NCBI GenBank assembly: GCA_964459595.1 | Contig: CAYWLV010000001.1 | Span: 84,056 to 148,055, forward strand | Direction of reading: 5' to 3' | DNA length: 64,000 nt | Origin: an uncultured Gammaproteobacteria bacterium | Lineage (GTDB): Bacteria > Patescibacteriota > Microgenomatia > UBA1406 > GWC2-37-13 | Shown here: piece after piece, positions 1 through 60,624 of the stretch | Numbering within the stretch: the first letter of the stretch is position 1 | Layout of the letters: each line of letters begins with the position of its first letter | Program-made: the position numbers and the translations under genes | The notes under the pieces: generated by a model | Database searches by the model: none | What the model was told of the DNA's origin: nothing | Seen by the model: only the letters and a program-made list of their open reading frames with translations

Positions 1-879
1 TTGATACCCACCAAATAGAGAACGAATATAGTCTGGCAAATAGCGAGACATATATTCTATACCAAACCATCCTCCTGTAGTTGGAGTTGGTACAGCTGAT
101 TTCGTTATTGGGAGAAACGTTCCAAATAATGCAAGAAGCGATGATGCGCCAGGAAATGATCCACTCAAAGCTATGATGATGAGCATACTCCCCACTCCTC
201 CCCCAAAGTAAAGGAGATTATACACATCAAGTCGCTTTCCTCTTCTCGATTCAATGAAAATTTTTATGAAATAAAGCAATAGAAAGCTGCCGGTGAGTGG
301 GATGTTTGCATATTTTGTGAGAAAAAAACAAAATGGAACTATCGCACCAAGAACGAGAGTAACTCTATTAATCGGAGTAATCATGAGGGAGAGATTCGCC
401 ATAAACAAAAAGAGAGTGAGATTTTCCGCCATTGCGAGGCTCGGATACCAATAAAAGAAATAGTTTGTGACGTAGAGGAAGAGGGAGAAAAATAGAATTA
501 AGTTGTTAGTCGAGAGTCGTTGGTCGCTAGCTCCGATAACTTTTCTAAGTATTTTGTAGAAGAAGAGAAATGAGACGAGGGCTAATATAACATTTGTGAA
601 ATAGAACATCCGCACATCCTTGTTTAGGATAAAAATAGGAATAAGCGAAAGAGAGTAAAGTGGTGGAACGCCCATTTTGAGAGATCTTCCTTCTCGAGTA
701 ATCTGCAAGCCTTTCCCCTCAATGAAGCTTCGCGCACTGTTGAGATAGTGGATTGTATCGGGGTAGGGCTCTAAGTTGGGAATAAGGGTGCGCATTGAAA
801 ATGGATCTCGCAACAACAAAGCAATAAAGATGAAGAGCGCAATGAGAAACGGCCAGTGCTTTTTTACCATTTTCATCAT
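1..879 (-). CDS. Polytopic membrane protein, candidate GT-C (ArnT/PMT-like) glycosyltransferase. Only the 5' part is present; the gene runs off the window start.
   Basis: Manual minus-strand translation from the ATG at 879-877 gives MMKMVKKHWPFLIALFIFIALLLRDPF.... I checked all 293 codons down to position 1 and found no stop. The sequence is strongly hydrophobic. It is absent from the ORF track because it is open-ended. Confidence 0.5.
   Translation of the reverse strand, partial: MMKMVKKHWPFLIALFIFIALLLRDPFSMRTLIPNLEPYPDTIHYLNSARSFIEGKGLQITREGRSLKMGVPPLYSLSLIPIFILNKDVRMFYFTNVILALVSFLFFYKILRKVIGASDQRLSTNNLILFFSLFLYVTNYFFYWYPSLAMAENLTLFLFMANLSLMITPINRVTLVLGAIVPFCFFLTKYANIPLTGSFLLLYFIKIFIESRRGKRLDVYNLLYFGGGVGSMLIIIALSGSFPGASSLLALFGTFLPITKSAVPTPTTGGWFGIEYMSRYLPDYIRSLFGGYQ
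506..531. repeat. In-frame heptamer tract (GTCG/GGTCG flavour) inside a CDS
   Basis: ttagtcgagagtcgttggtcgctagc encodes GASDQRLSTNN on the minus strand. The 21-mer at 506-526 is identical to 8168-8188. Confidence 0.7.
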
Positions 880-929
880 TGTATCATAGGCTTTTGGGAA
901 AAGAAAAAAATGATACAATTGTTCACATA

Positions 930-3311
930 ATGAAAACAGTTTCCATTATTATCCCGGTATTTAATGAAGAGAATAATATTGTGAGCGTTATTGAAAGTGT
1001 ACTTTCTTCTGACACGCTTGGGCTTAAGAAAGAAATAATTATTGTTGATGACGGGAGCACGGACAATACCAAACTAAAAGTCGAAAAAATACTACAGGCA
1101 AAAGTGCAACTCATTTCTTTCCCAGAAAACAAGGGCAAGGGTGCCGCGCTAAAGGCAGGATTTAAAAGAGCATCGGGAGATATCCTTTTAGTTCAAGATG
1201 CGGATCGCGAATATAATCCTTCAGACTATAAAACACTTCTTCGTCCATTTCTTAATTACGTTGCTCAGGTTGTGTACGGAAGTAGGAATAGCAACAGGAA
1301 GACTTTTCATACAAAATATTCCTATCTCCCCTTTTATTGGGGTGGAATAGCGCTCACCTGGATAATAAATATTCTCTTTGGTACTCGCCTCACAGATCAG
1401 GCAACAGGATATAAAGTATTTGATGCACGATATAAACAGCTGTTAACTAGTCCAAGAGAAAATAGATTTTCATATGAAGTTGCAGTTACTGGGCTTCTCG
1501 CAAGAAGCGGAATCCAGATACGTGAGGTACCCATTCACTACACTCCCCGTACATTTTATGAAGGAAAAAAAATAGGCGTTTGGGATTTTATTGAAAGTAT
1601 CTTTGTTGCCCTTCGGTATTCTTTGAATCCTCTAATCCTTCCTCTTATTCTTATCCTATATTTTTGGAAAGATTCAATCTTTCACCTCTCAACTCAAATT
1701 CACGATTGGATGGATGGCACTTTTATGATTTGGACTGTTCAAAACAACATTGAGCACTTCAAAGCATTTGCGATTAGTAAATTATATGAAACGAACGCAA
1801 TGTACTCATTTCCTCACTCTCTCTCAATGACTGATCATTTTTACTTTCCTTCATTTATTGCCACATTAATTTCATTGTTTTCTTCAAACTATTTTTTGCA
1901 GTTTAATGTCTTAACAGTTGGCAACCATATTCTTCTCTTATTTTCATTTTATCTTCTTGCGGGACGAATCACACGAAATAGTTGGATTAAAACAATTTCA
2001 TCATTTTATTTTGCATTTGGTCCATATTTCTTTTTGCAAATGGGCCATTTACAAATGGTATTTCTCTGGCCCCTTATCTTATCTGTCTATTATTTGTCCG
2101 ATTCAACTAAATCTCCAACAAGCGTAGTCAATTCCGGTGTGTGGATGGGACTACAGTTTCTCACAGGAACTTATTTAGGAGTAATGGGTTTTTTACTTGC
2201 AACTTTGCATTTTGTGTGCTCGTATTTTTTTGATAATCAAAGATTTGATGTGATCAAACGGTATGCGCTTTTCCTTTTCTTTTTCTTGCTGGTAGGGATG
2301 GTATCTATCTATGGTTATTTTCAGGTGAATGCACTGTACCATCCGGTGAGGGAGCAGGGACAGTATGTGAGCTATGCAGCTCATATCACAGATTACTTAT
2401 TTACCGTTAACCGCTCTTTTATATACTCGCTTTTTCCTTCATGGACTACTCTAAATAATCACAATTCATCAGAGCGTGCGGCATTTATTGGCTTTCTCCC
2501 TCTCATAATTTTTGGTGTCTGGATTTTGTTTCAGAAAAAAAGATTAGTGCTTTCAATGAGCTTAAATAAAAATACAATCTGGCTTATTGCACTGTTTTGT
2601 ATTGGGTTTATATTTTCACTTGGTCCAAGATTTAACTGGAATGGAATTTATAAGGTGACTCCACTTCCCTACCTTGTTCTTTTAAAGTTGTTTCCTCCGG
2701 TTGGCATCATTCGAGCAACAGCAAGGTGGTATGTTTATATTCATTTTGCAGTTTCTGTAGGCATGGTGTATTTTCTTTCTCAAATAGAACCGATTCTGCC
2801 TAAAAAATCGAAAGCAGGTATTATGACTCTACTTTTTGCATTTGCAGTATTGGAGTTTTATGTGTCGCCAGTTCAAACAGTTCAAAAGGGTTATATTCGC
2901 GCCTCAGATACTTTTCTTAAAAAACAGTGTGTACTACAACCTGGTGCTATACTTGAGTATCCGTTTGAGTATCGAGCACCAGATAGAACTGTGGAAAAAT
3001 TTCTTGCAGCAAAAACAAATACGCTTATGTACTCAACACTTCATACATGTCCCACATTGAGTGGATTTTCAAGTTTTGAACCCCCTCTTTTTTTGACACT
3101 TCAACGAATCTTTGATTCTCAGGGATTTTCAGATACAACAATAACGCAGCTTCAGCAACTATCTATAACCTATGTTCGAGTATCTAAAAATCATCTCAAT
3201 AGTAAAGAGAAACAAAATCCGCAAAGCTATATTACATCCAACAAACTACACCAAATCTATTCTGATGTAGAATCAACAATATATAGAATTGATAAAAAAA
3301 ATTATGATTAA
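930..3311 (+). CDS. Fusion protein: N-terminal GT2 polyprenyl-phosphate glycosyltransferase (DPM1/ArnC-like) plus a polytopic membrane domain of about 560 aa
   Basis: The ORF is 879-3311 with a TTG start. The first ATG at 930 gives MKTVSIIIPVFNEENNI..IIVDDGSTDNT..KGKGAALKAGF..QDADREYNP, which are GT2 signatures. The rest is many hydrophobic helices. Confidence 0.75.
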   Translation: MKTVSIIIPVFNEENNIVSVIESVLSSDTLGLKKEIIIVDDGSTDNTKLKVEKILQAKVQLISFPENKGKGAALKAGFKRASGDILLVQDADREYNPSDYKTLLRPFLNYVAQVVYGSRNSNRKTFHTKYSYLPFYWGGIALTWIINILFGTRLTDQATGYKVFDARYKQLLTSPRENRFSYEVAVTGLLARSGIQIREVPIHYTPRTFYEGKKIGVWDFIESIFVALRYSLNPLILPLILILYFWKDSIFHLSTQIHDWMDGTFMIWTVQNNIEHFKAFAISKLYETNAMYSFPHSLSMTDHFYFPSFIATLISLFSSNYFLQFNVLTVGNHILLLFSFYLLAGRITRNSWIKTISSFYFAFGPYFFLQMGHLQMVFLWPLILSVYYLSDSTKSPTSVVNSGVWMGLQFLTGTYLGVMGFLLATLHFVCSYFFDNQRFDVIKRYALFLFFFLLVGMVSIYGYFQVNALYHPVREQGQYVSYAAHITDYLFTVNRSFIYSLFPSWTTLNNHNSSERAAFIGFLPLIIFGVWILFQKKRLVLSMSLNKNTIWLIALFCIGFIFSLGPRFNWNGIYKVTPLPYLVLLKLFPPVGIIRATARWYVYIHFAVSVGMVYFLSQIEPILPKKSKAGIMTLLFAFAVLEFYVSPVQTVQKGYIRASDTFLKKQCVLQPGAILEYPFEYRAPDRTVEKFLAAKTNTLMYSTLHTCPTLSGFSSFEPPLFLTLQRIFDSQGFSDTTITQLQQLSITYVRVSKNHLNSKEKQNPQSYITSNKLHQIYSDVESTIYRIDKKNYD

Positions 3312-4943: not shown

Positions 4944-7388
4944 CCAGTAGCCATCAATATCTATTGTTTTTCCTTCTCCCACTTTATAGTATTTTTTTAC
5001 TTCATTTATACCTAGATCTACATTATTAGTAAGCCATGGAAGAAAAACATAATATATGTTTCCTTGGTATTTCTTATCTTTATGAATGGCTAAATTTTCT
5101 GTATAAAGAACAGAAGGTTTGTAGGTGTTTTTAATTTTGTAAGTTAATATATATGATTTTTCGATATTCATATACTCATAATATGCAAGCCATTTATTCC
5201 GATGATATTTTTCATTTAATACATTAAATATAAGCGTATCAGAAGCAGCAACTTGTATCCTCTTGTTAAATGCATTAAGTAATCTATTGATATAAACATA
5301 TTCAGTATTGTAGACCATAGAATCGCATCTACTCGAAAAATCATCGCTGATTTTAAAAATAGTATGTTTCCCAAATTTCATAGAGCCAAAGTATTTAATT
5401 GATAGGGGATCAATTGAATAAAATAATTGAAACATATTAAATATGATTCCAATCACTGCAAAGCTAATTCCAAAACCTATTTTTTTGTCAAAAGATAAAT
5501 AGTAAAGAATCATTGTTATAAGAAAAAAAGGCGCCATTACTACGTAGCGAGGATGAGTAACAGTTACATAAGTCAAATTAAAGCAGAGGTATACGAGCCA
5601 TGTAATAATCAAAGCAAAATAGTATTTATTATGAAAAATGCTGCAATTTATCTTTTTATTAAGTAAAATCAAATATATTAAAAGTAATACGTATATCCAA
5701 CTCCCATTAAGAATAAAGATTTGTCCAAAACGTTGATACATAACGCTTGTATTTATCAGAAGTGAGGTATTTATACTTCCTACAGACCCTCCCCACACCT
5801 TTCCACCATTTACTACAACGTAAATTATAAAAACAAATAGAGGAATGAATAAAATAAAATATTTATAAATCAACCTTAGTATTGATAAAGTTTTTTGATT
5901 TATGTTGAACTTCATATAGTAAGGAGATATTTCTATTAAAAATAGAGACCCTATATATGCAGAGTAAATTAAAACTCCAATTTCCTTAGAGAAAAGGGAT
6001 AGCGTGCCAGCAAATACAGCAAGAATATAGTAGCTATGGCTAAGGAGTGTAATAAAAATGATAAAAAATGCAAATGAAGGATAATCTAATGAAATATTAA
6101 GCGAAGTTGAAAATAGAAGTGGAGTTGTACATATGAGAATTGAATATATAGATGAAAGGCCTCTACTTATAATAAAAATATTTCTATATAAATAATATAA
6201 GGAAATATACGTAGCAACACACAACATCATAAAGCTAGCTTGAAGTAATACAGTATTTCCAATTTGTAAAAAACTTAGAATACTAATAATAAATGCAATT
6301 CCATGCGATGAATGGCCATACCATTGGAACCCTCTAAAAAACTGAAAAAATGAAAAATCAAAGTTACTCATTCCTTCGACTGCAGACATAAAATTATTCC
6401 CTCCATCGAATCGAGGCAAATCTTTGAGAAAAGGCAAATATAATACTATTATAAAAATTGATCCAACTCCAATATATTTATCAATTTTCAGTTTTGAAAA
6501 AAAATAATTACTAGTCTTACTTGTGGTTATTAAATAGATAAATAGAATATGAAGAAAACTAAATAATATAAGTAAATCTATTTTTAGTTTTTGAAATAAA
6601 TATAGATCTCCAAAAAGAGCTGAATCGATAAAGAGGAGTAAGAAGAACATAACCATCGCAATTTCAAATTTCACTTTAGGAATTGATATTCTAGATACTA
6701 ATGACTTAATAAGCCTAATGTGCGTCTGAGTATCAAAATAATTTAATAATGATGTTAGTAAACGTCGTTTAAAGAAAAAAATTAAAAAAAATCCAATATA
6801 AAGAAAACTAGAAGAAATAATAGTGATGGGCTCTATATATGACAAATATGATCTTATCTTTAATAGTAGAAAGCTTTCAAGTGAGTTTAGAACGGATTTT
6901 TTAGTATAAATATATTTCACTAAGAATTTCCCTGAGTTGGAGATGCCTATCGAATTTTCACTTCTGCCTCGCTGAGATATAATTGTAATTTCATATGCTT
7001 TTCCTTTAGATTCTGTTTGCTTTGGAAATCCAAAAGGATAATATTCTGAATCTGATATATTTTTTGTGTTATATGAATTCAGATATATCCAGTTTAATTT
7101 CCCCCTTTCTTTTAGTCCGAACACAAGCGTATCATCATTATTTCGATTATATGTATTTATATATAGACTAACAATTCCCAAATTGTTTGTTTCAGCTTTA
7201 AATGAATAGGTTAGTTTTTGAGCTTTTTTTAATTCTGGTCGTTTGATGCTCGTTTGCAATACATTAGTAATTGTAAGTGGCGTATCAGAATATTTAATAA
7301 GCGCAAAGAAAAAAGAGATTATAAGGATACTAATTTGTACAGCAAAGCAAACTAGAAGTATTTTTCTATATTTAAAAATATTTCTCAT
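4908..7388 (-). CDS. Large polytopic membrane protein (826 aa) of unknown function, possibly a glycan polymerase/transferase
   Basis: Long ORF with an N-terminal TM helix, a soluble domain of about 170 aa, more than 12 hydrophobic helices and a soluble C-terminal domain of about 200 aa. GC is very low. I recognise no catalytic motif. Confidence 0.55.
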   Translation of the reverse strand: MRNIFKYRKILLVCFAVQISILIISFFFALIKYSDTPLTITNVLQTSIKRPELKKAQKLTYSFKAETNNLGIVSLYINTYNRNNDDTLVFGLKERGKLNWIYLNSYNTKNISDSEYYPFGFPKQTESKGKAYEITIISQRGRSENSIGISNSGKFLVKYIYTKKSVLNSLESFLLLKIRSYLSYIEPITIISSSFLYIGFFLIFFFKRRLLTSLLNYFDTQTHIRLIKSLVSRISIPKVKFEIAMVMFFLLLFIDSALFGDLYLFQKLKIDLLILFSFLHILFIYLITTSKTSNYFFSKLKIDKYIGVGSIFIIVLYLPFLKDLPRFDGGNNFMSAVEGMSNFDFSFFQFFRGFQWYGHSSHGIAFIISILSFLQIGNTVLLQASFMMLCVATYISLYYLYRNIFIISRGLSSIYSILICTTPLLFSTSLNISLDYPSFAFFIIFITLLSHSYYILAVFAGTLSLFSKEIGVLIYSAYIGSLFLIEISPYYMKFNINQKTLSILRLIYKYFILFIPLFVFIIYVVVNGGKVWGGSVGSINTSLLINTSVMYQRFGQIFILNGSWIYVLLLIYLILLNKKINCSIFHNKYYFALIITWLVYLCFNLTYVTVTHPRYVVMAPFFLITMILYYLSFDKKIGFGISFAVIGIIFNMFQLFYSIDPLSIKYFGSMKFGKHTIFKISDDFSSRCDSMVYNTEYVYINRLLNAFNKRIQVAASDTLIFNVLNEKYHRNKWLAYYEYMNIEKSYILTYKIKNTYKPSVLYTENLAIHKDKKYQGNIYYVFLPWLTNNVDLGINEVKKYYKVGEGKTIDIDGYWLRYYKLTKLSQ

Positions 7389-8589
7389 GAATTATTGACA
7401 AAAATGACAGTTTGAAGTTTTCAGAATCAAAAAGATTTGAAACAGCAACGGATTGAATATTATTTGAAAGTAAATGTAGTAAAGTGTTTGAAACTAGATT
7501 ATCTTGATTTTTGAAGAGATATTTTCGAGTATCCGCTTTATAAAGTGTATTTACTATCTCTGGCAGTCCTCCCCCATTATAGAGCACTGGGATGCAGCCT
7601 GCTGATATCGCCTCAACAGCCGCAATTCCAAAGTGCTCCATATTAATAGGATTGGTTTCTCCATAGCCCCCTGCATGCCAATATATTTTAGATTTGAGGA
7701 GCACATCCTCAACTTCCTTTCGATCCACATTCAAGTGAAAGAAAATGGGATAGCCTTTTGCCATTTCCTTGAGCTGTTCAATATAGCGAATTGAGGAAGG
7801 CTCAGTGCCAACGCCGCCAACGAGATGTAATTGCAAGTCAGTCGTGAGTCGAGGGTCGTTGGTCGATAGCACGGAATACAGCTCTTTAAATGCCTCAATG
7901 AGGATTTCTTGCTTTTTTCCGTGGCCTAAAGTGAAGAATCGGCCAACTGAAGCAATCCAGTTGAGTTTAGTCGTAGGTCGTTGGCCGTTAGCCGTTAGCA
8001 GTTTTACTGGTGGATATATAACTATCGCGTTTTTATTCCACATCTTTTTTATCCATCCCTTTACAAACTCAGAATGACAGATAAAAGTATCATATGAGTT
8101 CAGCCGTTTGACCATGTCAGGGTATACTCCAGCACGAAGTCTATCATTAAGCTTTTCATATAGAAAATTAGTCGAGAGTCGTTGGTCGATGGCCGATGGA
8201 ATGAATTTTTTTATAAATCTAAAAAACTGGAGGACATAGTTGAAGAGGCCGCTGCGGATAGTCGAAGGAAAATGCACATAGTAGATATTCCACTTTCCGA
8301 TTGCATAGGAATAGTCCATGAAGGAGATATTTACAAACAAGTCTACAGACGATAGTCGTTGGTCGAGAGCAAAGGAGCGAAGCGATTCTTCACTTTCAAC
8401 CTGCTTGAAGGTGACGTCTGAGAGGTCGATGTCGAGCTTTTCCTTAATTTTAGTTAGAGAGACAGAATCTTGAGATACAAATATCACCTCAAAACCCTCA
8501 TCTGCAAGTGTTCGAGCAATTGTGCACGCCACTACTTCCCCGCCGCCCAAGCCCGAGAGCCATTTGTCATAAATAATTGCGGTTTTCAT
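7372..8589 (-). CDS. Glycosyltransferase family 4 (GT-B fold)
   Basis: N-terminal GLGGGEVVA and C-terminal EHFGIAAVEAISAGCIPV, an E-x7-E-like motif. The gene carries four in-frame heptamer tracts. Confidence 0.75.
   Translation of the reverse strand: MKTAIIYDKWLSGLGGGEVVACTIARTLADEGFEVIFVSQDSVSLTKIKEKLDIDLSDVTFKQVESEESLRSFALDQRLSSVDLFVNISFMDYSYAIGKWNIYYVHFPSTIRSGLFNYVLQFFRFIKKFIPSAIDQRLSTNFLYEKLNDRLRAGVYPDMVKRLNSYDTFICHSEFVKGWIKKMWNKNAIVIYPPVKLLTANGQRPTTKLNWIASVGRFFTLGHGKKQEILIEAFKELYSVLSTNDPRLTTDLQLHLVGGVGTEPSSIRYIEQLKEMAKGYPIFFHLNVDRKEVEDVLLKSKIYWHAGGYGETNPINMEHFGIAAVEAISAGCIPVLYNGGGLPEIVNTLYKADTRKYLFKNQDNLVSNTLLHLLSNNIQSVAVSNLFDSENFKLSFLSIIHEKYF
7838..7870. repeat. In-frame heptamer tract in the GT4 gene
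   Basis: gtcagtc|gtgagtc|gagggtc|gttggtc|gatagc has period 7 and encodes VLSTNDPRLTTDL. Confidence 0.65.
7966..8002. repeat. In-frame heptamer tract in the GT4 gene
   Basis: gtttagtcgtaggtcgttggccgttagccgttagcag encodes KLLTANGQRPTTKLN. Confidence 0.65.
8168..8199. repeat. In-frame heptamer tract in the GT4 gene
   Basis: ttagtcgagagtcgttggtcgatggccgatgg encodes PSAIDQRLSTN. The 21-mer is identical to 506-526. Confidence 0.7.
8348..8370. repeat. In-frame heptamer tract in the GT4 gene
   Basis: gacgatagtcgttggtcgagagc encodes ALDQRLSSV. Confidence 0.6.
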
Positions 8590-9602
8590 TCTCTTTTGTT
8601 GTTTTTTAAAATTGCGTAATTATGCTCTATTGCATCAAGATGAAGTCCATGCAATTTATCTGCCCGTTTGGCTGAGAGTTCAAAGAAGTGAGAGAAGAAG
8701 AAGAGCGACACTTTCAAATATTGGCTTTGCTGAGCGAGGCGATTATGCTTTATGCCAAATGGAATTCGAAGAAGAGATTTTGCAAAAAACTTTAAATACT
8801 CTCTCCAAAATATTCGTCTTGGAAACCAGAAGAAAGTATGTAAAAGCCTTCCCAGCTCGCTATGATAGATAAAAAAGTTTGAGAACTCTCCCGCGGACGC
8901 TGCATGGACATGATGAACAACGGCTTTCGGCGCATACATGATTTTATATCCATGCATTTTTGCTCTTTCGGAGATCTCCACATCTTCGTAGTACATGAAA
9001 AAAGTATCATCAAGCAGTCCAATTTTTGTCAGGGCAGACTTTCGATACAACGCAGCAACAGCACAGGCAGCATACGTTTCTTTCTCTCTTTCAAATTGGC
9101 CAACATCTTCCGCATAGTCTTGCGAATGCCCTTTTACCACAGCGCCCACATCTCTTCCATATCCATCGTTAAACATAACAATTCCTGCATTTTGGATTTT
9201 ATTGGTTTTCTGCAGATATACTTTAGATCCAACTGCAAACACTTTTTCATCTTTTTCTGCCACTTTCACGAGCTCCGTGAGCCAATTGGAATCAACAAGG
9301 CAGTCATTATTGAGCAGAATAACATACTCACCTTTTGCAATTTTGATCCCTTCATTGTTTCCTCCAGCAAAGCCGAGATTTCGGGGAAGAGAGAGTAGTT
9401 GGTAGTTTGTAGTTAGTAGTTTATTTGATGAAATCCAATTCGAAATTATACTAGAGCTTTTGTCGCGAGAGGCATTATCTACAATAATCACTTCATATCG
9501 GACTTTTGGATAGGAAAGATGAGAAAGTGACTCTAATGTATCTTTTATGAACTTTTCTCCTTGAAAATTAAGAACGATGACGCTGCAAAAGGGGTATGAC
9601 AT
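8586..9602 (-). CDS. Glycosyltransferase family 2
   Basis: CSVIVLNFQGEKFIKDTLESLSHLSYPKVRYEVIIVDNASRDKS...LLNNDC. There is a 4-nt overlap with the downstream GT4 gene. Confidence 0.8.
   Translation of the reverse strand: MSYPFCSVIVLNFQGEKFIKDTLESLSHLSYPKVRYEVIIVDNASRDKSSSIISNWISSNKLLTTNYQLLSLPRNLGFAGGNNEGIKIAKGEYVILLNNDCLVDSNWLTELVKVAEKDEKVFAVGSKVYLQKTNKIQNAGIVMFNDGYGRDVGAVVKGHSQDYAEDVGQFEREKETYAACAVAALYRKSALTKIGLLDDTFFMYYEDVEISERAKMHGYKIMYAPKAVVHHVHAASAGEFSNFFIYHSELGRLLHTFFWFPRRIFWREYLKFFAKSLLRIPFGIKHNRLAQQSQYLKVSLFFFSHFFELSAKRADKLHGLHLDAIEHNYAILKNNKRE
9391..9424. repeat. In-frame heptamer tract (GTTAGTA/GTTGGTA flavour) in the GT2 gene
   Basis: gagagtagttggtagtttgtagttagtagttta encodes NKLLTTNYQLLSL. 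It shares agtagttggtag and gtagttagtag with 59121-59150. Confidence 0.6.
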
Positions 9603-19835: not shown

Positions 19836-21116
19836 ATGACCTACGATGTGAAGGATATCAACTTGGCGGATTCTGGAAAACAGTTAATCGAGTGGGCGGA
19901 GAGAGAAATGCCGGTGCTTCGCCTTATTAAAAAACGATTTGCAAAAGAAAAGCCACTCAAGGGAGTGACTCTTGCAGCATGCCTTCATGTAACAAGTGAA
20001 ACAGCAAACCTCATGAGAACACTGAAAGCCGGAGGAGCAAATGTATGTTTAGCAGCAAGCAATCCCCTTTCCACAAATGATGCAGTGGCGGCAGCACTCG
20101 TGAAGGAATATGATATTCCCACATTTGCAATAAAAGGAGAAGATAACAAAACATACTTTAAGCACTTGAATGCCACACTCGATTTCAAACCAAATATGAC
20201 AATGGATGATGGTGCAGATTTGGTGAGCATTTTGCACACCACTCGAAAAGAACTTCTCAAAGGGGTGGTAGGTAGCAATGAAGAAACAACAACGGGGGTG
20301 ATTCGCTTGCGCGCAATGGAAAAAGATAAGGCGCTCAAAATCCCAGTTTTGGCAGTGAATGATAATCTCACAAAGCACATGTTTGATAATCAATATGGAA
20401 CGGGACAAAGCACACTGGACGGCGTGATTCGCGCCACCAACATGCTTCTTGCCGGCCGCAACTTTGTTGTGGTTGGGTATGGATGGTGTGGACGAGGACT
20501 CGCACGACGAGCACAAGGAATGGGAAGTCATGTGATTGTGTGTGAAGTGGATGCTGTAAAAGCGCTTGAGGCGAGAATGGATGGATACCGTGTGATGCCA
20601 CTTGTGGAAGCAATGGCGATTGCAGATGTGGTGGTCACTGTTACCGGAGACAAACATGTGATAGACACCCCTCACATTAAAGCAGCAAAAGATGGGCTTA
20701 TTCTTGCAAACTCAGGACATTTTGATGTGGAGATAAACAAAGTTGCCATGAAAAAGCTTTCAAAAAGCATTCGCACGGTGCGCCCATTTGTGGAAGAGTA
20801 TCTACTAGAAGACAGAAGTAAGAAGACAGAAATAAGAACCAAAAAAATATATCTGTTGGCAGACGGACGACTGGTGAACCTCGGCAGTGCTGAAGGACAC
20901 CCTGCGAGCGTAATGGATATGAGCTTTGCTGGGCAAGCATTGGGAAGTGAATATATGTGGAAGAATAAGGGGAAGTTTGAAAATAAAGTATATTCCCTAC
21001 CTGCTAATGTGGATCAAGAAATAGCTGCACTCAAACTGAAAAGTGAGGGTGTAGAAATTGACAAGCTTACCGCTGAGCAGAAAGAATATTTGAATAGCTG
21101 GAAGGAAGGAACGTAA
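19836..21116 (+). CDS. ahcY: Adenosylhomocysteinase
   Basis: [22 protein letters not shown]...[10 protein letters not shown]...[17 protein letters not shown]; full-length match to the family. Confidence 0.95.
20806..20840. repeat. In-frame AGAAGAY-type heptamer tract in ahcY
   Basis: tagaagacagaagtaagaagacagaaataagaacc encodes [12 protein letters not shown]. The 21-mer at 20806-20826 is identical to the intergenic 44146-44166. Confidence 0.75.
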
Positions 21117-22618: not shown

Positions 22619-23215
22619 ATGGGTGCTATGTATGAGAGAATACGACATCTCTTTCAAGGAGAACGGCAAGAACCGTCAATAGAATCCTTTATGAGCAAGC
22701 TTAGTGATAAGCTAAACCGCACATTTCAAGATCATCTTACTCAGGGAAAAATTGACAAAGCAATTCCTCGGTATGGACTTCCTTCAAAACCACTCCTTCA
22801 ACCACACAGAATGTGGCTTGGTGACTTTACTGCTGAACGAGAGCTCCATTTTTCTGCTGCACTGGGATCGTTGAAAAAAGAAGGTAAAACAGATGTAGTA
22901 TTTTTGCAGACAAACGGCATGCGAGAGAGAGGAGAGTTCTATATTGTCTCAGCGGATATAATAAAACTCACCGCTTTCCCTTATGAGCCAATTGACGAAA
23001 TAGACAATCCTTTGCATGTGAAATCGCCAACCCGACATGAACTTAAACTGTGCAGAGAAATTATGGAGCAAATGACTCAAGACATATCAATACTAGACCC
23101 TCCTCCATATTTTGAAAGATATGGCATACCTATACATCTCGTGACATTAGCAGATCAAGCAACTCGGTGTATTCGTGAAAAAGGAGCTACAATTCCCTAT
23201 TCAGATTTTTTATAG
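22619..23215 (+). CDS. Hypothetical protein (198 aa)
   Basis: ORF only; I recognise no motif. Its end overlaps the converging gene by 19 nt. Confidence 0.4.
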   Translation: MGAMYERIRHLFQGERQEPSIESFMSKLSDKLNRTFQDHLTQGKIDKAIPRYGLPSKPLLQPHRMWLGDFTAERELHFSAALGSLKKEGKTDVVFLQTNGMRERGEFYIVSADIIKLTAFPYEPIDEIDNPLHVKSPTRHELKLCREIMEQMTQDISILDPPPYFERYGIPIHLVTLADQATRCIREKGATIPYSDFL

Positions 23216-24645
23216 ATTAATCTTCTTGGTAAAACCCACCCACTCTTTTTTGCAGTTTCCATCCGAAGCAATCTCTTTTTACTTCTCTTTTTTTCTTTTA
23301 ATGCATTTGCGATGGCGAGGGCCCAGTCGGTATGTGACTTTGGAGTATAGAGAAGCCCTTTGGCAACTGCAGCGGTTGCCGAAGGGGCAACAATTGGTTT
23401 TCCGGAAGCGAGATAAAGCGGAAGCTCGGGATGATTGAATACGGTGGATTTATCATATTTAAAAGGCGATATGAGAATATCAAAAGACTGCAAGAATAGG
23501 GGTAGTTTTTTATAGGGCTGCTTCCCTACAGGAAAAATATTGGGAGACTTCTCTGCAACTTCTATAACCGGGCGATAATCGGTATTTCCCACAAGCACAA
23601 TCGATGCGGTGGGAAATGAAGCGGCAAGTTTGAATAGCAAATCTTCATCTATTTTTTCATCAAGTGTGCCGATATAGCCCATTACTGGTTTTTTGATCCA
23701 ACATAAACCCACATCGCATGTTTGAATCATTTTAGAAGTATCTTTAAACGCATCCCAATCGACACCATTTTTTACGAGAATATCTCTTTTATCGCGAAAG
23801 AGCGCTATATGGGGAGCAGTCAGAAGTTCGGCATGTTTTATACATTTCTTTTCGGCCTTAACTATATGTTTTCCAGCTGCTCCTGTTTGAATAAATCCAT
23901 ACGCATTATCATATGTGTATGTGTATTTTTTCAGTGGGAAAATAAGAGACCAGAATGGGTGGTGGAGATAAGTGATTGATGGTCGATGGTCTTTGGTCGC
24001 AAGCTGGAGGGATTTTTTGAGGAATGCAACTTCTTTTCGTGAAGGATTTTGATAGTTGAGATGAAGAATCTTTTTTGCAGTGAGTCGAATGGCAGTAAAG
24101 TTTGGAAATGATTCGATAATCCGAAATCCGGGACGACTTCCCTCATCAAACACGCCCTCGATATAAGTGACGGGAACTTTTTCAGAAAGTTTCTGAGAAA
24201 TCTGAACTGATCGAGATTGAAAGTCCGAAGAATCAGTAGTGCCAAAGATAATATATGAGTTTATTTTGCGAGATTTTATTTGAGCATAAGATTTCTTGTC
24301 TAGTTTACCCTGAGCCTGCCGAAAAGATCGAAAAGACACCAATGTCCTTATATATTTGAAAAAATATAGTACATATGCATAAGGAGTCTTTCTTAAGATA
24401 TGGAGCCATTTCTTTTTGCGCAAAAGCGAGAGAATAGATTTTTGCTTGAGTAAAAGCATTGGAACTTCTTCATTTTTAGACCGAACAAATATCTTTTTTA
24501 TATCCTGCCCCGCAAAATAAAATGCGGAGAAAAACTCAAAGATGAGAGACGAATCATGCAGCGAGAGAGAAGATCGAAGTTGCTCCACTTCAAGGTATAA
24601 GAGCTTTTCTTGTTCTATAAGATTTTTCAGAATTGGCTTTTTCAT
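23197..24645 (-). CDS. Putative glycosyltransferase (GT-B, TuaH-like C-terminal half) with an N-terminal extension
   Basis: The C-terminal half GYIGTLDEKIDEDLL..IVLVGNTDY...PVGKQPYKKLPLFLQSFDILISPF resembles GT1/GT4-type enzymes. Confidence 0.45.
   Translation of the reverse strand: MKKPILKNLIEQEKLLYLEVEQLRSSLSLHDSSLIFEFFSAFYFAGQDIKKIFVRSKNEEVPMLLLKQKSILSLLRKKKWLHILRKTPYAYVLYFFKYIRTLVSFRSFRQAQGKLDKKSYAQIKSRKINSYIIFGTTDSSDFQSRSVQISQKLSEKVPVTYIEGVFDEGSRPGFRIIESFPNFTAIRLTAKKILHLNYQNPSRKEVAFLKKSLQLATKDHRPSITYLHHPFWSLIFPLKKYTYTYDNAYGFIQTGAAGKHIVKAEKKCIKHAELLTAPHIALFRDKRDILVKNGVDWDAFKDTSKMIQTCDVGLCWIKKPVMGYIGTLDEKIDEDLLFKLAASFPTASIVLVGNTDYRPVIEVAEKSPNIFPVGKQPYKKLPLFLQSFDILISPFKYDKSTVFNHPELPLYLASGKPIVAPSATAAVAKGLLYTPKSHTDWALAIANALKEKKRSKKRLLRMETAKKSGWVLPRRLIYKKSE
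23972..24004. repeat. In-frame heptamer tract (GGTCG flavour)
   Basis: gtgattgatggtcgatggtctttggtcgcaagc encodes LATKDHRPSITY. Confidence 0.5.
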
Positions 24646-24676
24646 GACTGTTGAGGAATACTATAGCATAGAACGG

Positions 24677-24802
24677 CTAAATCCTAAACTCTAAATTCTA
24701 AACCCTAAACTAAGATACGCAAAAATCAAAATTTCTAAAACAATTAAATTTTGGATTTAATCTTTTGAGAATTAGGTTTTAGGGTTTAGGATTTAGAATT
24801 TA
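24677..24802. repeat. Family-A heptamer hairpin element A3
   Basis: The left arm ctaaatc|ctaaact|ctaaatt|ctaaacc|ctaaact has perfect period 7. The right arm is attaggt|tttaggg|tttagga|tttagaa. Confidence 0.8.
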
Positions 24803-24833
24803 TCTCGCTTCGTTTCGTGTATAATATAAAGCT

Positions 24834-26390: not shown

Positions 26391-28202
26391 ATGTCCTCTA
26401 TTCGCAACTTCGCAATTATCGCGCATGTAGACCATGGCAAGAGCACTCTTGCTGATCGTTTATTGGAGTTAACCGGAGTTGTATCTGCTGGAAACCATGA
26501 AGAACAGATGCTCGATCGCAATCCTGTCTCGCGTGAACGTGGTATCACCATAAAACTTGCACCGGTAAAGATGATATATAGAAGACAGAAGATAGAAGAA
26601 AGAAGTATGAATGACTCAAATCTAGATTCTGACTTCACTATTCTGAATTTAATAGATACACCTGGACATGTGGACTTTTCCTATGAAGTAGACCGAACAC
26701 TAGCCTGTGTGGATGGGGTGATTTTACTTGTTGATGCGACACAGGGGATACAAGCACAAACAATCGCCAATGCCTATAAAGCTCTTGAGAAAAATCTTGT
26801 CATTATTCCAGTCATCAATAAAATTGATATGCCGGGAGCTGAGGTTGAGAAAACAAGAAAACAGATTATGGACTTTCTGGGTATCCGGGCAGATGAAATG
26901 TATGAAATATCAGCAAAAACCGGAGAAGGAGTGCAAAAGGTATTAGATGCAGTGATTGAAAAAATTCCAGCACCGACAATTTTAGAACACAACTTAAAAG
27001 ATACACAGAACGAAGAACGGAGAACGACGAACTTTAAGCTACAAGCTCTCATTTTTGACTCATATTACGATACTCACAAAGGCGTGATTGCATTTGTACG
27101 CGTGTTTGGCGGCTCGATAAAACGAGGAATGACAGTAAAAATGGCTCATGAAGGGGGCACGTTTATTGTGTCTGAAGTGGGGATTTTCAAACCAGATCTC
27201 ACCACAACCGAAGAAGTAAAAGATGGAGAAATAGGCTATGTTGCCACCAATTTAAAAGATATTCATGCAATTCAAATTGGAGACACAATGCAACTTCCCA
27301 AAGATGATACTCCTCCCCTTCCTGGGTATAAAAAAGTGAAGCCGATGGTGTATGCAAGTATCTTTCCTACAGATACAAACGATTATCTCAATTTTAAAAA
27401 AGCACTAGAAAAGTTATATCTCACAGATAGCGCCCTCGACTTTAGTGGTATATACAGTACGGCGCTTGGTGCAGGATTTCGCGTGGGATTCTTGGGATTA
27501 CTTCATGCAGATGTTGTACGAGAACGACTTGAACGCGAATATGAGCTGAGCCTTGTTCTTACCCCCCCACAAGTAGAGTTCAAAATAGAAGATGGACGTT
27601 TTTTTGAGCCGATTGTAAAAATATTTATTTATACTCCAGAAAACTACACGGGAGCCGTTATGAAAGTGTGTGAAGAACATCGGGCCAAATTTATCACCAT
27701 GGACAATACCAATCAAATTGCACTCACTTATGAGATGCCACTAGCTGAGCTTATCACCGACTTTTTTGATCAACTGAAAAGCAAAACAAGCGGTTATGCT
27801 TCACTCGATTGGGAAATTCTTCGTTATGAGATGGCAGATGCAAATAAAATGGAACTACTTATCAACAATGATCCCGTTGAAGAGTTCTCAGAAATTGTAG
27901 TAACGGAACGAGCACAAGAGAAAGCGCAGTTTCTCACCAAGCGTTTAAAAGACCTCATCCCTCGTCAACAGTATGAAGTAAAAATTCAAGCAAAATATAA
28001 AGGAAAGATTATTGCTAGTGAGCGGATATCGCCATTTAGAAAAAATGTATTAATTCATAATAGTAAGGTAGTGGGGGCGGGAGACGTGGGAAGAAAAAAT
28101 AAGTTATTGGAAAAGCAAAAAGAGGGTAAAAAACTCATGAAAGCTGTAGGGAAAGTGGAAATCCCGAAAGATGCGTTTATGAAACTCTTCAAAAAGGATT
28201 AA
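26391..28202 (+). CDS. lepA: Translation elongation factor 4
   Basis: IRNFAIIAHVDHGKSTLADRLL...LIDTPGHVDF...C-terminal KLLEKQKEGKKLMK. The G domain holds two low-complexity inserts. Confidence 0.95.
   Translation: MSSIRNFAIIAHVDHGKSTLADRLLELTGVVSAGNHEEQMLDRNPVSRERGITIKLAPVKMIYRRQKIEERSMNDSNLDSDFTILNLIDTPGHVDFSYEVDRTLACVDGVILLVDATQGIQAQTIANAYKALEKNLVIIPVINKIDMPGAEVEKTRKQIMDFLGIRADEMYEISAKTGEGVQKVLDAVIEKIPAPTILEHNLKDTQNEERRTTNFKLQALIFDSYYDTHKGVIAFVRVFGGSIKRGMTVKMAHEGGTFIVSEVGIFKPDLTTTEEVKDGEIGYVATNLKDIHAIQIGDTMQLPKDDTPPLPGYKKVKPMVYASIFPTDTNDYLNFKKALEKLYLTDSALDFSGIYSTALGAGFRVGFLGLLHADVVRERLEREYELSLVLTPPQVEFKIEDGRFFEPIVKIFIYTPENYTGAVMKVCEEHRAKFITMDNTNQIALTYEMPLAELITDFFDQLKSKTSGYASLDWEILRYEMADANKMELLINNDPVEEFSEIVVTERAQEKAQFLTKRLKDLIPRQQYEVKIQAKYKGKIIASERISPFRKNVLIHNSKVVGAGDVGRKNKLLEKQKEGKKLMKAVGKVEIPKDAFMKLFKKD
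26579..26610. repeat. In-frame AGAAGAY-type heptamer tract in lepA
   Basis: tagaagacagaagatagaagaaagaagtatg encodes RRQKIEERSM. It shares tagaagacagaag with 20806 and 44146. Confidence 0.65.
27005..27032. repeat. In-frame heptamer tract (AGAACGN) in lepA
   Basis: cagaacg|aagaacg|gagaacg|acgaact encodes TQNEERRTTN. Confidence 0.6.
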
Positions 28203-29314: not shown

Positions 29315-29322
29315 AATAGGTT

Positions 29323-29450
29323 TAAATCCTAAATCCTAAAAACTAAATCCTAATCAAACCCTAAATAAAAAATATCAAACACTAAAAGAAATATTTTAGG
29401 ATTTGAGACTTTGTATTTATTTTTATAGAGTTTAGGGTTTAGGATTCAGA
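29323..29450. repeat. Family-A heptamer hairpin element A5
   Basis: Left arm aaatcct|aaatcct|aaaaact|aaatcct, reversed box near 29411-29424, right arm tagagtttagggtttaggattcaga. Confidence 0.75.
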
Positions 29451-29458
29451 GTCTGTAT

Positions 29459-33098: not shown

Positions 33099-33107
33099 AA
33101 TAAAAAT

Positions 33108-33220
33108 AAAATCCTAAACTCTAAAAACTAAACTCTAAACAAATTCTAAATCATAAATCCTAAATATTTTAGGATTTTGACATAATTGATTAGGATTTAG
33201 GGTTTAGTATTTAGTGTTTG
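33108..33220. repeat. Family-A heptamer hairpin element A7
   Basis: The left arm is aaatcctaaactctaaaaactaaactctaaac. A perfect 10-bp inner stem aaatcctaaa-tat-tttaggattt lies at 33155-33177. The right arm is gattaggatttagggtttagtatttagtgtttg. Confidence 0.8.
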
Positions 33221-33225
33221 CTAAT

Positions 33226-45713: not shown

Positions 45714-45766
45714 AAAGTCTGAAAGTCTTAAAGTCTAAAGTCAGAAAGTTGGAAAGTTAGAAAGAC
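45714..45766. repeat. Family-C heptamer tract (AAGTCTR flavour), single arm, upstream of the tRNA
   Basis: aagtctg|aaagtct|taaagtc|taaagtc|agaaagt|tggaaag|ttagaaag. Confidence 0.6.
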
Positions 45767-45790: not shown

Positions 45791-45863
45791 CGGGACATAG
45801 TTCAGATGGTAGAACATGCGGTTCGGGACCGCAAGGTCGTGAGTTCAAGTCTCACTGTCCCGA
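45791..45863 (+). tRNA. tRNA-Pro (anticodon CGG)
   Basis: Hand-folded cloverleaf: acceptor CGGGACA/TGTCCCG, D stem GTTC/GAAC, anticodon stem TGCGG/CCGCA with loop TTCGGGA, T arm GTGAG-TTCAAGT-CTCAC, discriminator A. No CCA is encoded. Confidence 0.9.
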
Positions 45864-45893
45864 CTTTCATTTTTTGTTATACTCAAAACACCT

Positions 45894-52561: not shown

Positions 52562-52569
52562 TAATAAAT

Positions 52570-52690
52570 ACTAAACCCCAAATCTTAAACTCTAAACAAA
52601 TCCCAAATTATAAATCCTAAAAAATAATAATTTAGAGTTTGCTATTTTGCATTAATTTGATTAGGATTTAGTGTTTAAGATTTAGGGTTT
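52570..52690. repeat. Family-A heptamer hairpin element A14
   Basis: Left arm actaaaccccaaatcttaaactctaaacaaatcccaaat, right arm gattaggatttagtgtttaagatttagggttt. Confidence 0.75.
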
Positions 52691-52700
52691 CATTAGACAC

Positions 52701-58802: not shown

Positions 58803-58807
58803 AGGAT

Positions 58808-58931
58808 AAAACTCTAAACTCTAAACGCTAAACCCTAAACAAATCATAAATCCTAAATCTGAATACCTAAATATTTCTAATTAAGAATTTTGACCTTTTT
58901 GACTGAGATTTAGTGTTTAGTATTTAGGATT
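58808..58931. repeat. Family-A heptamer hairpin element A18
   Basis: Left arm aaaactc|taaactc|taaacgc|taaaccc|taaacaa, right arm gagatttagtgtttagtatttaggattt. It overlaps the proS stop. Confidence 0.75.
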
Positions 58932-60624
58932 TTTTAAATTCAAGCATTAACTTATCAACAGTAACAAGCTTCACTTCCTTTTCCCCTCTTTTTTTCATCT
59001 CGATCATCTCCCCTGTTTTTGGGGAAATGACAAGTCGATAGGGGCACCCGACAAGATCTGCATCTGCAAATTTGGCACCGGGTGATACATCGGTGCGATC
59101 GTCAAAGAGTATCTCAAGATGGTAGTTAGTAGAAAGTAGTTGGTAGAGGGTATGAGCTTTTTCGAAGGGAGCTGAATCTTTACCGATTGCGATTAAATGG
59201 ATTTTGTACGGTGCAATATTTTCAGGCCATTTTATACCTCGTTCATCATGATGCTGCTCCACAATTGTGGCCAGAGTTCGTCCGATTCCTATTCCGTAGC
59301 AACCCATATAATATGGCTTATCTGTGCCATCGGCATCTTTAAACACGGCATTATTCATGAGTTTTGTGTAGTGATATCCGAGCTGAAAAATGTTTCCCAC
59401 TTCAATCCCCTTTTTCATGATAAGTTTTTTACCATCTGGCGTAATATCTCCTTCTTTTGCAAGTGCGATATCAGCAAGTTTTTCACAGGTAAAGTCACGT
59501 CCATAGTTTACGTTAATGGTGTCTGTTGTTTCTTCTTTTTGACCCCCAATAAAATTTTTGACTGTGGTGAGTGAGATATCTCCAATATAGCGAGCACCGG
59601 TATGACCCCATGAGTGTACATACCCTCGTTTTGTACCAATTGCACTAAGGTCTTCCTCTGTTGCTGGTTCGAGCTGTCCCACTGCATTGAGTGCGTGCTC
59701 TAGTTTGATTTTATTAACTTCCAAGTCTCCCCTCATTACGGCTATAATTATTTCTTTGTTTACTCTATTTTTAAACACAACATTTTTAAGAAAGTGAGCA
59801 GAATTTTTTTTATAATGCTTTTCATTATCTTCCATGGTTTGAACCCATGCAGGCTGCTGTATAGTTTCAACTGGCTTTTCTTCCTCTTGTGAATTAATCT
59901 CTGTTCTTTGAAAGATGGCAACATCTTCGTGTGCATTATATACTCCGTCTGTAGTTGAGAGATAATTTGTTTCTCCAATGGGTGAGTCTACGACATATTC
60001 ATGACAATATTCTCCTCCGATATACCCACCATCAGACTCAACGATTACTGTATCAAGTCCGAGCCTTTTAAAAATACGGGTGTAGGTATCCCCCATTTTT
60101 TTATATTCTTTCTTAAACTCTTCAGAATTAATATCAAAAGAATATGCATCTTTCATGATAAACTCACGTACTCGCAGTAACCCACCTCGCGCTCTCATTT
60201 CGTCTCTAAACTTTGAGGAGAATTGGTAGATATTAATTGGCAATTCTTTGTAACTAATTTGAAACTTTCTGATAACATCTACAAACATTTCTTCAGCAGT
60301 ACCACCGAGGGCAAACTCAGCTCCTCGTCTATCTTTTATCTGCATAAGTTCAAATCCTGCTGTATTTGTGCGATTAGTTTCTTTCCATAGTTCAAGCGGA
60401 TGAAGTACGGGTGACACCATTTCTTGTGCACCGGCTGCGTCCATTTCTTCCTTAACAATTTTCATAATATTTTGTTGCAGCTTCATGCCAAGGGGGAGAA
60501 AGAAGAATCTTCCTGCTGTTGATTCACGAATATAGCCGGCTTGATAGAGAAGCTTATAGGAGTCCATTGTTGCGTCGGAAGGTGCTTCACGGACTGTTTT
60601 TCCAAAGAGTTTAGAATATAACAT
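58924..60624 (-). CDS. proS: Proline--tRNA ligase (bacterial type)
   Basis: MLYSKLFGKTVREAPSDA...AGYIRESTAGRFFFLPLG...FRDEMRARGGLLRVREF. Confidence 0.95.
   Translation of the reverse strand: MLYSKLFGKTVREAPSDATMDSYKLLYQAGYIRESTAGRFFFLPLGMKLQQNIMKIVKEEMDAAGAQEMVSPVLHPLELWKETNRTNTAGFELMQIKDRRGAEFALGGTAEEMFVDVIRKFQISYKELPINIYQFSSKFRDEMRARGGLLRVREFIMKDAYSFDINSEEFKKEYKKMGDTYTRIFKRLGLDTVIVESDGGYIGGEYCHEYVVDSPIGETNYLSTTDGVYNAHEDVAIFQRTEINSQEEEKPVETIQQPAWVQTMEDNEKHYKKNSAHFLKNVVFKNRVNKEIIIAVMRGDLEVNKIKLEHALNAVGQLEPATEEDLSAIGTKRGYVHSWGHTGARYIGDISLTTVKNFIGGQKEETTDTINVNYGRDFTCEKLADIALAKEGDITPDGKKLIMKKGIEVGNIFQLGYHYTKLMNNAVFKDADGTDKPYYMGCYGIGIGRTLATIVEQHHDERGIKWPENIAPYKIHLIAIGKDSAPFEKAHTLYQLLSTNYHLEILFDDRTDVSPGAKFADADLVGCPYRLVISPKTGEMIEMKKRGEKEVKLVTVDKLMLEFKKS
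59121..59150. repeat. Heptamer-type tract (GTTAGTA/GTTGGTA) in frame in proS
   Basis: ggtagttagtagaaagtagttggtagaggg encodes LYQLLSTNYH. It shares 11- and 12-mers with 9391-9424 and resembles the intergenic 60661-60683. Confidence 0.5.

Follow-up and report, generated by a model that had tools for sequence, protein, structure and literature searches.

In-frame heptanucleotide arrays in the loops of a Patescibacteria glycosyltransferase as repeat DNA rather than a conserved protein motif

In the window analysed here, that is, the whole stretch of 64,000 nucleotides of contig CAYWLV010000001.1, a single gene for a family 4 glycosyltransferase (GT4) carries four short in-frame tracts of an imperfect heptamer, and 21 nucleotides of one of these tracts recur without change in a gene for a membrane protein. 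The locus thus raises the question of whether the tracts represent a peptide motif shared by different proteins or repeat DNA lying within reading frames, and by what process such DNA came to occupy the same loops in related proteins. Our comparisons indicate that the tracts are a DNA-level repeat and not a conserved protein motif: four loops of the GT4 protein are built of short heptamer runs, tolerated as extra loop peptide. The tracts under study are as follows.

7372-8589, minus strand: GT4 glycosyltransferase gene (GT-B fold, 405 amino acids), carrying all four tracts
7837-7872, minus strand: tract 1, VLSTNDPRLTTD, with sense units CGACCAA, CGACCCT, CGACTCA and CGACTGA
7963-8004, minus strand: tract 2, KLLTANGQRPTTKL, the linker joining the two Rossmann domains, with about six units (AAACTGC, TAACGGC, TAACGGC, CAACGAC, CTACGAC and TAAACTC)
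8167-8199, minus strand: tract 3, PSAIDQRLSTN, holding the exact 21-mer at 8168-8188
8344-8370, minus strand: tract 4, ALDQRLSSV, with plus-strand units ATAGTCG and TTGGTCG
501-530, minus strand: tract of the first gene, GASDQRLSTNN, containing the exact 21-mer at 506-526
23972-24004, minus strand: weaker tract, LATKDHRPSI, with units GACCAAA, GACCATC and GACCATC, in the gene at 23197-24645

All four tracts of the GT4 gene are present where the preliminary description had placed them, with limits refined here from the translation. The unit reads NNNGTCG on the plus strand and (A)ACGACC/T on the sense strand; the arrays are imperfect and in frame, and their sense-strand translation gives rotations of T-T-N-D-Q-R-P/L. 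Each tract consists of 3-6 units, among which the two copies of TAACGGC in tract 2 are the sole identical neighbours. The host protein contains a Glycos_transf_1 domain (PF00534; E 8e-16, 58.5 bits against a cut-off of 26.4) and recurs unchanged in an independent Logan assembly. Its AlphaFold (AF2) model has a predicted local distance difference test (pLDDT) score of 88, and the best Foldseek matches of this model, BshA, PimA and WaaG, all with a probability of 1.00, identify the two-Rossmann GT-B fold. All four tracts lie in coil or at helix ends of the model, and local pLDDT minima were detected at tracts 2, 3 and 4 (72, 59 and 71, respectively), that at tract 3 being the lowest of the model. 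Clustering of this GTCG flavour is strong, since four of the six tracts in the window fall within 1.2 kb (binomial estimate, about 2e-6). Searched for with up to 2 mismatches, GTCGNNNGTCGNNNGTCG occurs at 13 places in the window where 0.5 would be expected; every one of these lies on the plus strand, the sense orientation of minus-strand genes.

The choice of codons and the reading phase both point to DNA as the level at which the tracts are related. Within the tracts the codons are fixed by the unit, aspartate being GAC in 6 of 6 cases (29% genome-wide), arginine CGA in 6 of 6 (26% genome-wide) and serine TCG in 5 of 8 (9% genome-wide). A near-identical block is read in two codon phases, as DQRLSTN at 8168-8188 and as (S)TNDPRLT at 7845-7865; tract 1, which reads DPRLTTD, uses a codon phase unlike that of tract 3. 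An ideal (AACGACC)n array gives NDQRPTT, the same cyclic heptad in every phase. Because three units of seven nucleotides make 21, the same cyclic heptad arises in all phases and the same apparent motif is found in unrelated genes; likewise, because three units equal seven codons, such repeats can persist inside genes. In a codon alignment of the window GT4 gene with the DNA of six orthologues (L001, L003 and L005-L008), the amino-acid identity was 0.28-0.45 in the tract columns as opposed to 0.63-0.71 over the remaining columns, while the third-position identity was not lower in the tracts (0.39-0.60) than elsewhere (0.39-0.46). The observation that would speak for a protein motif, namely a peptide conserved with divergent codons in genomes lacking the repeats, was looked for at the GT4 tracts and was not found.

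The orthologues show that the loops, rather than the peptides, are what is shared. The nearest orthologues are annotated as Candidatus Roizmanbacteria, Microgenomates or Patescibacteria, and the in-gene heptamers recur in six of these related genomes. In the GT4 orthologues, the same loops are again occupied by heptamer arrays, whose units and peptides differ (e.g. the peptides NSKPSTLNPK and TSNQKLV). For the linker of tract 2, the units are ACGGCTA/ACGACCT in the window, four ACGACTA/ACGACCA units in L005, ACCAACC in L001, AACCAGT in L007 and AACTCTA/AACCCTA in L008, the last encoding the unrelated NSKPSTLNPK. Of 28 orthologues, 4 have tract 3, and most homologues keep at this position a conserved T-x-L-H-x-L-x-P segment; in P0007 and P0009 this segment is followed by a clean insert of 14 amino acids (TTNDQRPTTILD...). 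Compared with P0002, P0004 and P0005, the window protein is longer at tract 3 by 7 amino acids (21 nucleotides). Homologues free of tracts have short loops with the conserved core unchanged. The corresponding loop of the first gene exceeds that of the window by 7 amino acids in L001 (unit AGCTTTC), by 10 in L003 and by 14 in L007. Indels in steps of seven amino acids are seen at the clearest sites, tract 3 and the first-gene loop. The adjacent gene for a family 2 glycosyltransferase (GT2) carries a sister tract, where its orthologues in turn have arrays of AACGACT, AACCAGT, AACCACT or AATCTCC.

9390-9424, minus strand: sister tract of the AACTACT flavour, KLLTTNYQL, in the GT2 gene at 8586-9602

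The shared 21-mer, TTAGTCGAGAGTCGTTGGTCG, is exact at 506-526 and 8168-8188, both copies encoding DQRLSTN as previously described, and a third copy with 2 mismatches (19/21) was detected at 7845-7865. It consists of the ordered unit triple CGACCAA, CGACTCT and CGACTAA. The improbability of this identity depends on the null model. Shuffling of the whole window predicts 0 copies, although this null is blind to heptamer structure. Permutation of the 20 observed units over the six tracts produced a shared ordered triple in 0.4% of trials; with draws from a pool lacking one copy of the triple, the figure was 2.9%. Given the unit pool, the identity is therefore only moderately improbable (P 0.004-0.03). 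Together with the third, 19/21 copy, this value supports a non-independent origin, a block of 21 nucleotides or more having been passed on by descent or copied, and thereby a relationship between the GT4 gene and the membrane-protein gene that lies in repeat DNA and not in protein function.

The preliminary description had taken the shared block as a sign of repeat dissemination rather than of a protein motif. The part concerning repeat DNA as opposed to a selected motif agrees with the results above, while the spread of a recently inserted mobile 21-mer does not: the loops of both the first gene and the GT4 gene also hold heptamer arrays in relatives at 55-67% identity, no hairpin was detected in the tracts, and the only match of the 21-mer in JGI metagenome contigs, within a eukaryote-like S/P-rich open reading frame (ORF), was judged to be due to chance. 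The sequences flanking the two exact copies diverge immediately. Recent spread of a 21-nucleotide element is thus unproven and probably wrong.

The other host genes are less fully characterised. The first gene (1-873, minus strand), of which the window holds the N-terminal part, encodes a hydrophobic multi-pass membrane protein. Neither its full-length orthologues (E up to 1) nor the fragment (default 0.001) matched any Pfam family, and its earlier label as GT-C-like, though possible, is unsupported, no GT-C model such as PMT_2 having matched in Pfam. The weaker copy noted earlier in a third gene does exist; since this gene gave a weak Glycos_transf_1-like match in Pfam, it is not fully unrelated to the GT4 gene.

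The GTCG tracts belong to a much larger population of heptamers. GC makes up 37% of the window and coding sequence 92%. By one criterion (Tandem Repeats Finder plus a period scan), 33 tracts of period 7 were detected, against 1-6 for each of the periods 5, 6 and 8-11; at a stricter threshold 13 period-7 tracts remained, with 0 in shuffles. At least six unit flavours were recognised among the 33 arrays, of which 20 lie in the 8% of non-coding DNA and have AT-rich units (CTAAACT, AAATCCT and TTTAGGG-like). The units in coding DNA include AACGACC-like, AACTACT, ACACCCT, AAAGCTC, AGAAGAT and GAACGAA, and the GTCG flavour is coding in all six of its arrays in the window. Perfect AACGACC is stop-free in every phase on both strands, while AACGACT, AACCACT and the AT-rich units contain stops, and AT-rich units with stop codons were found in spacers only; the stop content of the units accounts for the split into coding and spacer flavours. 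Among the Patescibacteria loci examined, the AACBACY family is sense in about 31, antisense in 3 and non-coding in 2; two antisense copies examined encode WWLVVGG, in predicted membrane proteins. Coding and spacer arrays differ also in folding. No hairpin or discrete element was detected in the coding tracts (folding z about 0 against shuffles), whereas the spacer arrays form inverted pairs giving long imperfect hairpins (z -3.9 to -5.0 against shuffles). Such hairpins could act as terminators or stabilisers, by analogy with what has been proposed for the short tandemly repeated repetitive (STRR) DNA of cyanobacteria. The inverted pairs are located as follows.

33099-33225: spacer array, inverted pair
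24670-24810: spacer array, inverted pair
58803-58935: spacer array, inverted pair
52562-52700: spacer array, inverted pair
29315-29458: spacer array, inverted pair

In-gene arrays are not confined to glycosyltransferases, being found also in the genes for LepA, cysteinyl-tRNA synthetase (CysRS), prolyl-tRNA synthetase (ProRS) and an M50 protease. Those of LepA and the M50 protease are listed below.

26578-26640, plus strand: site A insertion of LepA (gene at 26391-28202), heptamer-built, RRQKIEERSMNDSNLDSDFT
27003-27044, plus strand: site B insertion of LepA, heptamer-built, QNEERRTTNFKL
62868-62930, minus strand: arrays of the M50 protease gene with unrelated units, AAAGCTC followed by ACACCCT, adjacent, in frame and in one loop, SSKLKAESSTTTPYTLHPTS

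For LepA, 43 database orthologues with 78-95% amino-acid identity were compared. Site A is empty (G-D-Y) in 19 of the 43, and the others hold 3-51 extra residues, either heptamer- or palindrome-derived, among them peptides of the VIPAEAGIQ...DSRLRGNDK type, which is characteristic of palindromic repeat elements. Site B varies from 10 to 46 residues among the orthologues. The empty-site LepA of L135 shares 94.7% protein identity with that of the window and only 50% of third positions, indicating that the insertion events are not recent. At site B, the peptide is kept while synonymous sites drift, which suggests that an old insert can turn into ordinary coding sequence. An imperfect palindrome seen in the LepA insert was no better than those in shuffles.

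How, then, did the arrays arise? We regard it as probable, though well short of certain, that STRR-like arrays grow and turn over by a slippage-type process, and that the reading frame, stop codons, hydrophilicity and the tolerance of loops act as filters. The GT4 tracts would then be the stop-free, coding-compatible member of the STRR-like heptamers that fill this Roizmanbacteria-like genome of the Patescibacteria. Units would be gained and lost by slipped-strand mispairing, the presumed engine, with some copying between arrays of one genome. What survives inside genes would have passed four filters: a net length keeping the frame (three units, 21 nucleotides or seven codons), the lack of an in-frame stop, a hydrophilic orientation (ACGACCA x3 giving T-T-N-D-Q-R-P in any phase), and a site within a tolerant surface loop or linker, of which GT4 has four and its orthologues use the same ones. 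The resulting peptides may be close to neutral.

The arrangement of units carries a signature of such growth. The mean Hamming distance is 1.74 between adjacent units, against 2.10 between units of one tract that are not neighbours (P 0.004), 2.20 between units of other tracts at the same locus (P 2e-5) and 2.29 between units of other loci, these P values being approximate because the pairs are not independent. The gradient is as local unit duplication predicts, with a little exchange within the genome. The window itself offers examples: tract 2 has GCCG variants as neighbours, and tract 3 and the array at 23978 have ATGG variants. In addition, the period is clear in orthologous loops in spite of near-saturated synonymous sites, which suggests that the arrays have been renewed and not merely inherited.

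Several observations, besides the dependence among the pairs just mentioned, weigh against slippage-type growth. The question raised in the preliminary description, whether each GT4 tract is an insertion relative to orthologues, has a different answer for different tracts: tract 3 is one, while tract 2 is not a simple insertion, being just 2-3 amino acids longer than the linker in tract-free homologues, so that arrays can also overwrite sequence and do not simply add to it. At site A of LepA, the inserts do not come in steps of 7 amino acids. Duplicate assemblies (L001/L002, L003/L004, and L131 and L134 against the window) are identical, without polymorphism in unit number; they thus say nothing of slippage rates, and ongoing slippage is not demonstrated. 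Imperfect arrays of 3-5 units should slip rarely in any case. The recurrence of arrays at the same loops fits both an old array with turnover and repeated insertion. The concordance of unit flavour within a protein is weak, 10 pairs out of 22 being of the same flavour where 6.4 were expected (P 0.07), and the matches in other phyla described below hint at a process more specific than simple slippage. Concerted evolution of unit flavour within a protein, or genome-specific flavours, was considered on the basis of this same P value; the concordance being not significant, neither is claimed.

The alternative that stands nearest to the proposed slippage is a mobile element of very small size: a block formed beforehand, about 21 nucleotides in length or a multiple thereof, would insert into both genes and spacers, and the 21-mer would represent two or three copies of it. 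The two exact copies and the 19/21 copy within 64 kb, at the P value given above, are what such a block would leave; inserts of 7 and 14 amino acids occur, other small elements are found at the same loops (the two palindromes of P0026 and the 27-nucleotide hairpin of L003, both described below), LepA orthologues contain VIPAEAGIQ...RGNDK-type inserts, and the short contig L132 is joined exactly at a shared tract. We nevertheless consider a mobile block unlikely: the tracts have no hairpin and no defined ends, and are variable in length, the flanks of the exact copies differ at once, the orthologous loops in distant relatives are already filled, the 21-mer has no genuine metagenome match, and the similarity of adjacent units favours growth in situ. 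Relatives with filled and empty sites are saturated at synonymous positions, and comparison of these sites diagnosed no breakpoints. The view of the heptads as a selected peptide feature, either a flexible hydrophilic linker or a recognition motif with the DNA period as a by-product, agrees with the strong hydrophilic bias of the sense orientation and with LepA site B, where some inserts are under peptide-level constraint. It is hardly compatible, however, with the tract peptides being the least conserved parts of GT4, with unrelated peptides encoded by different units at the same loop, with one DNA block read in two phases, with codons atypical of the genome, or with tract-free homologues having short loops and the same conserved core, and we give it little credence.

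Equally improbable in our estimation are contingency loci, in which gain or loss of one 7-nucleotide unit would switch the glycosyltransferase off or on as in neuO of E. coli K1. The host genes encode surface-polysaccharide glycosyltransferases, a classic target of phase variation, and the neuO heptanucleotides also sit in frame with three units per disordered heptad (PMC3046976). In the present tracts, by contrast, the 3-6 units are imperfect with a single identical neighbour pair, the location is internal and not at the 5' end, no frameshifted allele was detected among cluster members or duplicate assemblies, and tracts of the same kind are present in LepA, CysRS, ProRS and the M50 protease. 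Chance, a compositional artefact or an assembly error has a close to negligible probability. Short period-7 matches can arise by chance in AT-rich DNA, and nothing else favours it; the shuffle controls were clear, the reading frame is intact with a confident structure model, independent assemblies of other runs give an identical sequence, and the same phenomenon appears in six related genomes.

Heptamer repeats as such are not new, and the arrays described here belong, as a variant, to a kind of repeat that is known though still without explanation. Mazel et al. are said to have described, in 1990, the STRR heptanucleotides of heterocystous cyanobacteria, and an STRR array inside a functional gene, rnpB, was reportedly found by Vioque in 1997. 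The STRR units are CCCCAGT (STRR1), TTGGTCA (STRR2) and CAACAGT (STRR3); the plus-strand TTGGTCG found here differs from STRR2 by one base and AACCAGT of L007 is similar to STRR3, without being identical. Both systems comprise tandem 7-nucleotide units in many dispersed arrays, with several flavours side by side and hairpins in spacers; in both, arrays can sit in a functional gene and the function of the repeats is unexplained. They differ in host, here Patescibacteria and not a heterocystous cyanobacterium, and in location: a mainly intergenic, hairpin-forming nature is true of the AT-rich flavours but not of the GTCG flavour, which is almost exclusively coding, in frame, sense, in internal loops and present several times per gene. 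The small dispersed repeats (SDR) of Nostoc, 21-27 nucleotides long, reportedly land in genes and inside heptamer arrays (Elhai et al. in 2008); the hairpin of L003, within a heptamer tract, and the palindromes of L133 resemble SDR, whereas the GT4 tracts have neither a hairpin nor a fixed length.

Dispersed, hairpin-forming 7-bp repeats have been described in cyanobacteria (PMC2670836), and tandem heptamers represent the most abundant periodic repeat in prokaryotic spacers, of unexplained function (10.1101/309039; PMC4692102). In these surveys, tandem heptamers were under-represented in coding regions (SPADE preprint, 10.1101/309039; Rehm et al. 2015, PMC4692102), and in-frame loop arrays are not described there. 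The TAACTGA direct repeats of Beggiatoaceae, Cyanobacteria and Bacteroidetes, the mechanism of which is likewise unexplained (MacGregor 2015, PMC4679880), are mostly intergenic and located just upstream of start codons, where a translational role has been proposed; a few are in ORFs, at the ends of proteins and in the stop-free 'reverse' orientation encoding the heptad LSVISYQ (PMC4679880). As in our case, these are heptamer direct repeats with a TAAC core that are spread over phyla and whose coding orientation is decided by stops; the present arrays, in contrast, are internal, at orthologous loops, and show unit turnover. The poly-psi variable-number tandem repeat of neuO, carried by the E. 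coli K1 prophage CUS-3, has three AAGACTC units per disordered heptad RLKTQDS (PMC3046976). It consists of 2-93 perfect units at the 5' end with frequent slippage, giving a phase switch and an activity that scales with the number of heptads (PMC3046976), and a full-length protein is made only with multiples of three units (PMC3046976). Common to neuO and GT4 are in-frame heptanucleotides in a surface-polysaccharide enzyme, with three units making one heptad (here TTNDQRP/L, with pLDDT minima at tracts 2-4); the GT4 tracts differ in having 3-6 imperfect units, internally and at four sites, with no variation observed among duplicate assemblies.

A literature search for heptamer repeats in Patescibacteria found no paper. 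Nor did we find an account of one flavour nearly confined to coding DNA, in frame and in internal orthologous loops, or of several such arrays per gene, with unit turnover and essential proteins as hosts. A GTDB scan with (AACSACY)x3 gave, among the matches listed, Acidobacteriota, Chloroflexota, heterocystous Cyanobacteria, Planctomycetota, Bacteroidota, Firmicutes and one Patescibacteria genome; with matches in so many phyla, the unit family is not lineage-specific. For the GTDB genomes L009-L128, 37 of 133 AACCACT/AACGACC arrays among the matches listed are in ORFs of at least 150 amino acids. Of these ORF-borne arrays in other phyla, again among the matches listed, 24 are sense and 13 antisense, giving TTNDQRP, TTNHQPP or WSLVVGR.

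From this distribution a more far-reaching idea can be drawn, which we put forward as quite improbable: the arrays may be the footprint of an active, sequence-specific process common to many phyla, which rebuilds arrays and remodels loops. Candidates could be a recombination or repair pathway with hot spots in GGTCGTT/GGTGGTT-type arrays, or an enzyme copying or writing (Y)AAC-N-A-S-Y heptamers. If true, this would be an unrecognised mutational mechanism for loop diversity, including that of essential proteins such as LepA, and not passive slippage. The in-gene location is of use in itself, because alignments of orthologues provide a ruler for gain, loss and turnover of units and thus a practical route to how heptamers arise. 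Such alignments indicate that loop length in Patescibacteria proteins is set in part by repeat DNA and not by peptide selection. Low-complexity segments of the TTNDQRP, TTNHQPP and WSLVVGR type in the proteomes of metagenome-assembled genomes are best taken as derived from repeats. They can lead alignments and the placing of domain boundaries astray, and assemblies may be mis-joined where unrelated genes contain identical tracts, as perhaps in L132.

Other repeats were noticed at the loops of the GT4 and first-gene orthologues. In L003, at about 20880-20920, a 27-nucleotide GC-rich hairpin-like insert, GCCCCGCGAAGCCTTGGCGAAGTGGGG, lies inside the heptamer tract of the orthologue of the first gene. 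The GT4 orthologue P0026 contains an in-frame palindrome of 41-44 nucleotides twice (L133, 10550-10590 and 10697-10740); the palindrome, ACCGAGGCGGTT...AACCGCCTCGGT, reads TEAVxK..G..TASV and is situated at the loops of tracts 2 and 1, and no further copy was found in 21 kb. The same loops thus accept a second repeat family. The contig L132, 2.7 kb in length and from a related genome, carries at about 1524 the junction of an ORF in which a DUF1189 membrane protein is fused with the GT4 orthologue, the point of fusion being exactly the heptamer tract CCAACTACTAACCACCAACCACC. This junction represents either an assembly mis-join or recombination at a tract common to two genes; it suggests that an identical tract may also occur in an unrelated gene of that genome, and that its length may suffice to misguide an assembler or to allow recombination.

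Next to the first gene, at 879-3311, lies a gene for a protein of 810 amino acids, for which no database record was found. Elsewhere in the window, three AACTACT units at 60651-60685 have C5 runs on both sides (G5 on the plus strand); this array overlaps the 3' (stop) end of the ORF at 60676-61200 and is located in the spacer towards the ProRS gene (58924-60624). Period-8 arrays of AAAGTCTG and its complement were found at 45714-45764, 63159-63188 and 63250-63279, the one at 45714-45764 just 5' of tRNA-Pro (45791-45864) and the other two forming an inverted pair near 63.2 kb. About 350-500 nucleotides past position 64000 of the window, in L131, inverted AGCTTGA/AACTTGA arrays flank a core of about 90 nucleotides bounded by ATCTTTGA...TCAAAGAT, which could be a unit resembling a miniature inverted-repeat transposable element (MITE) or a small RNA.

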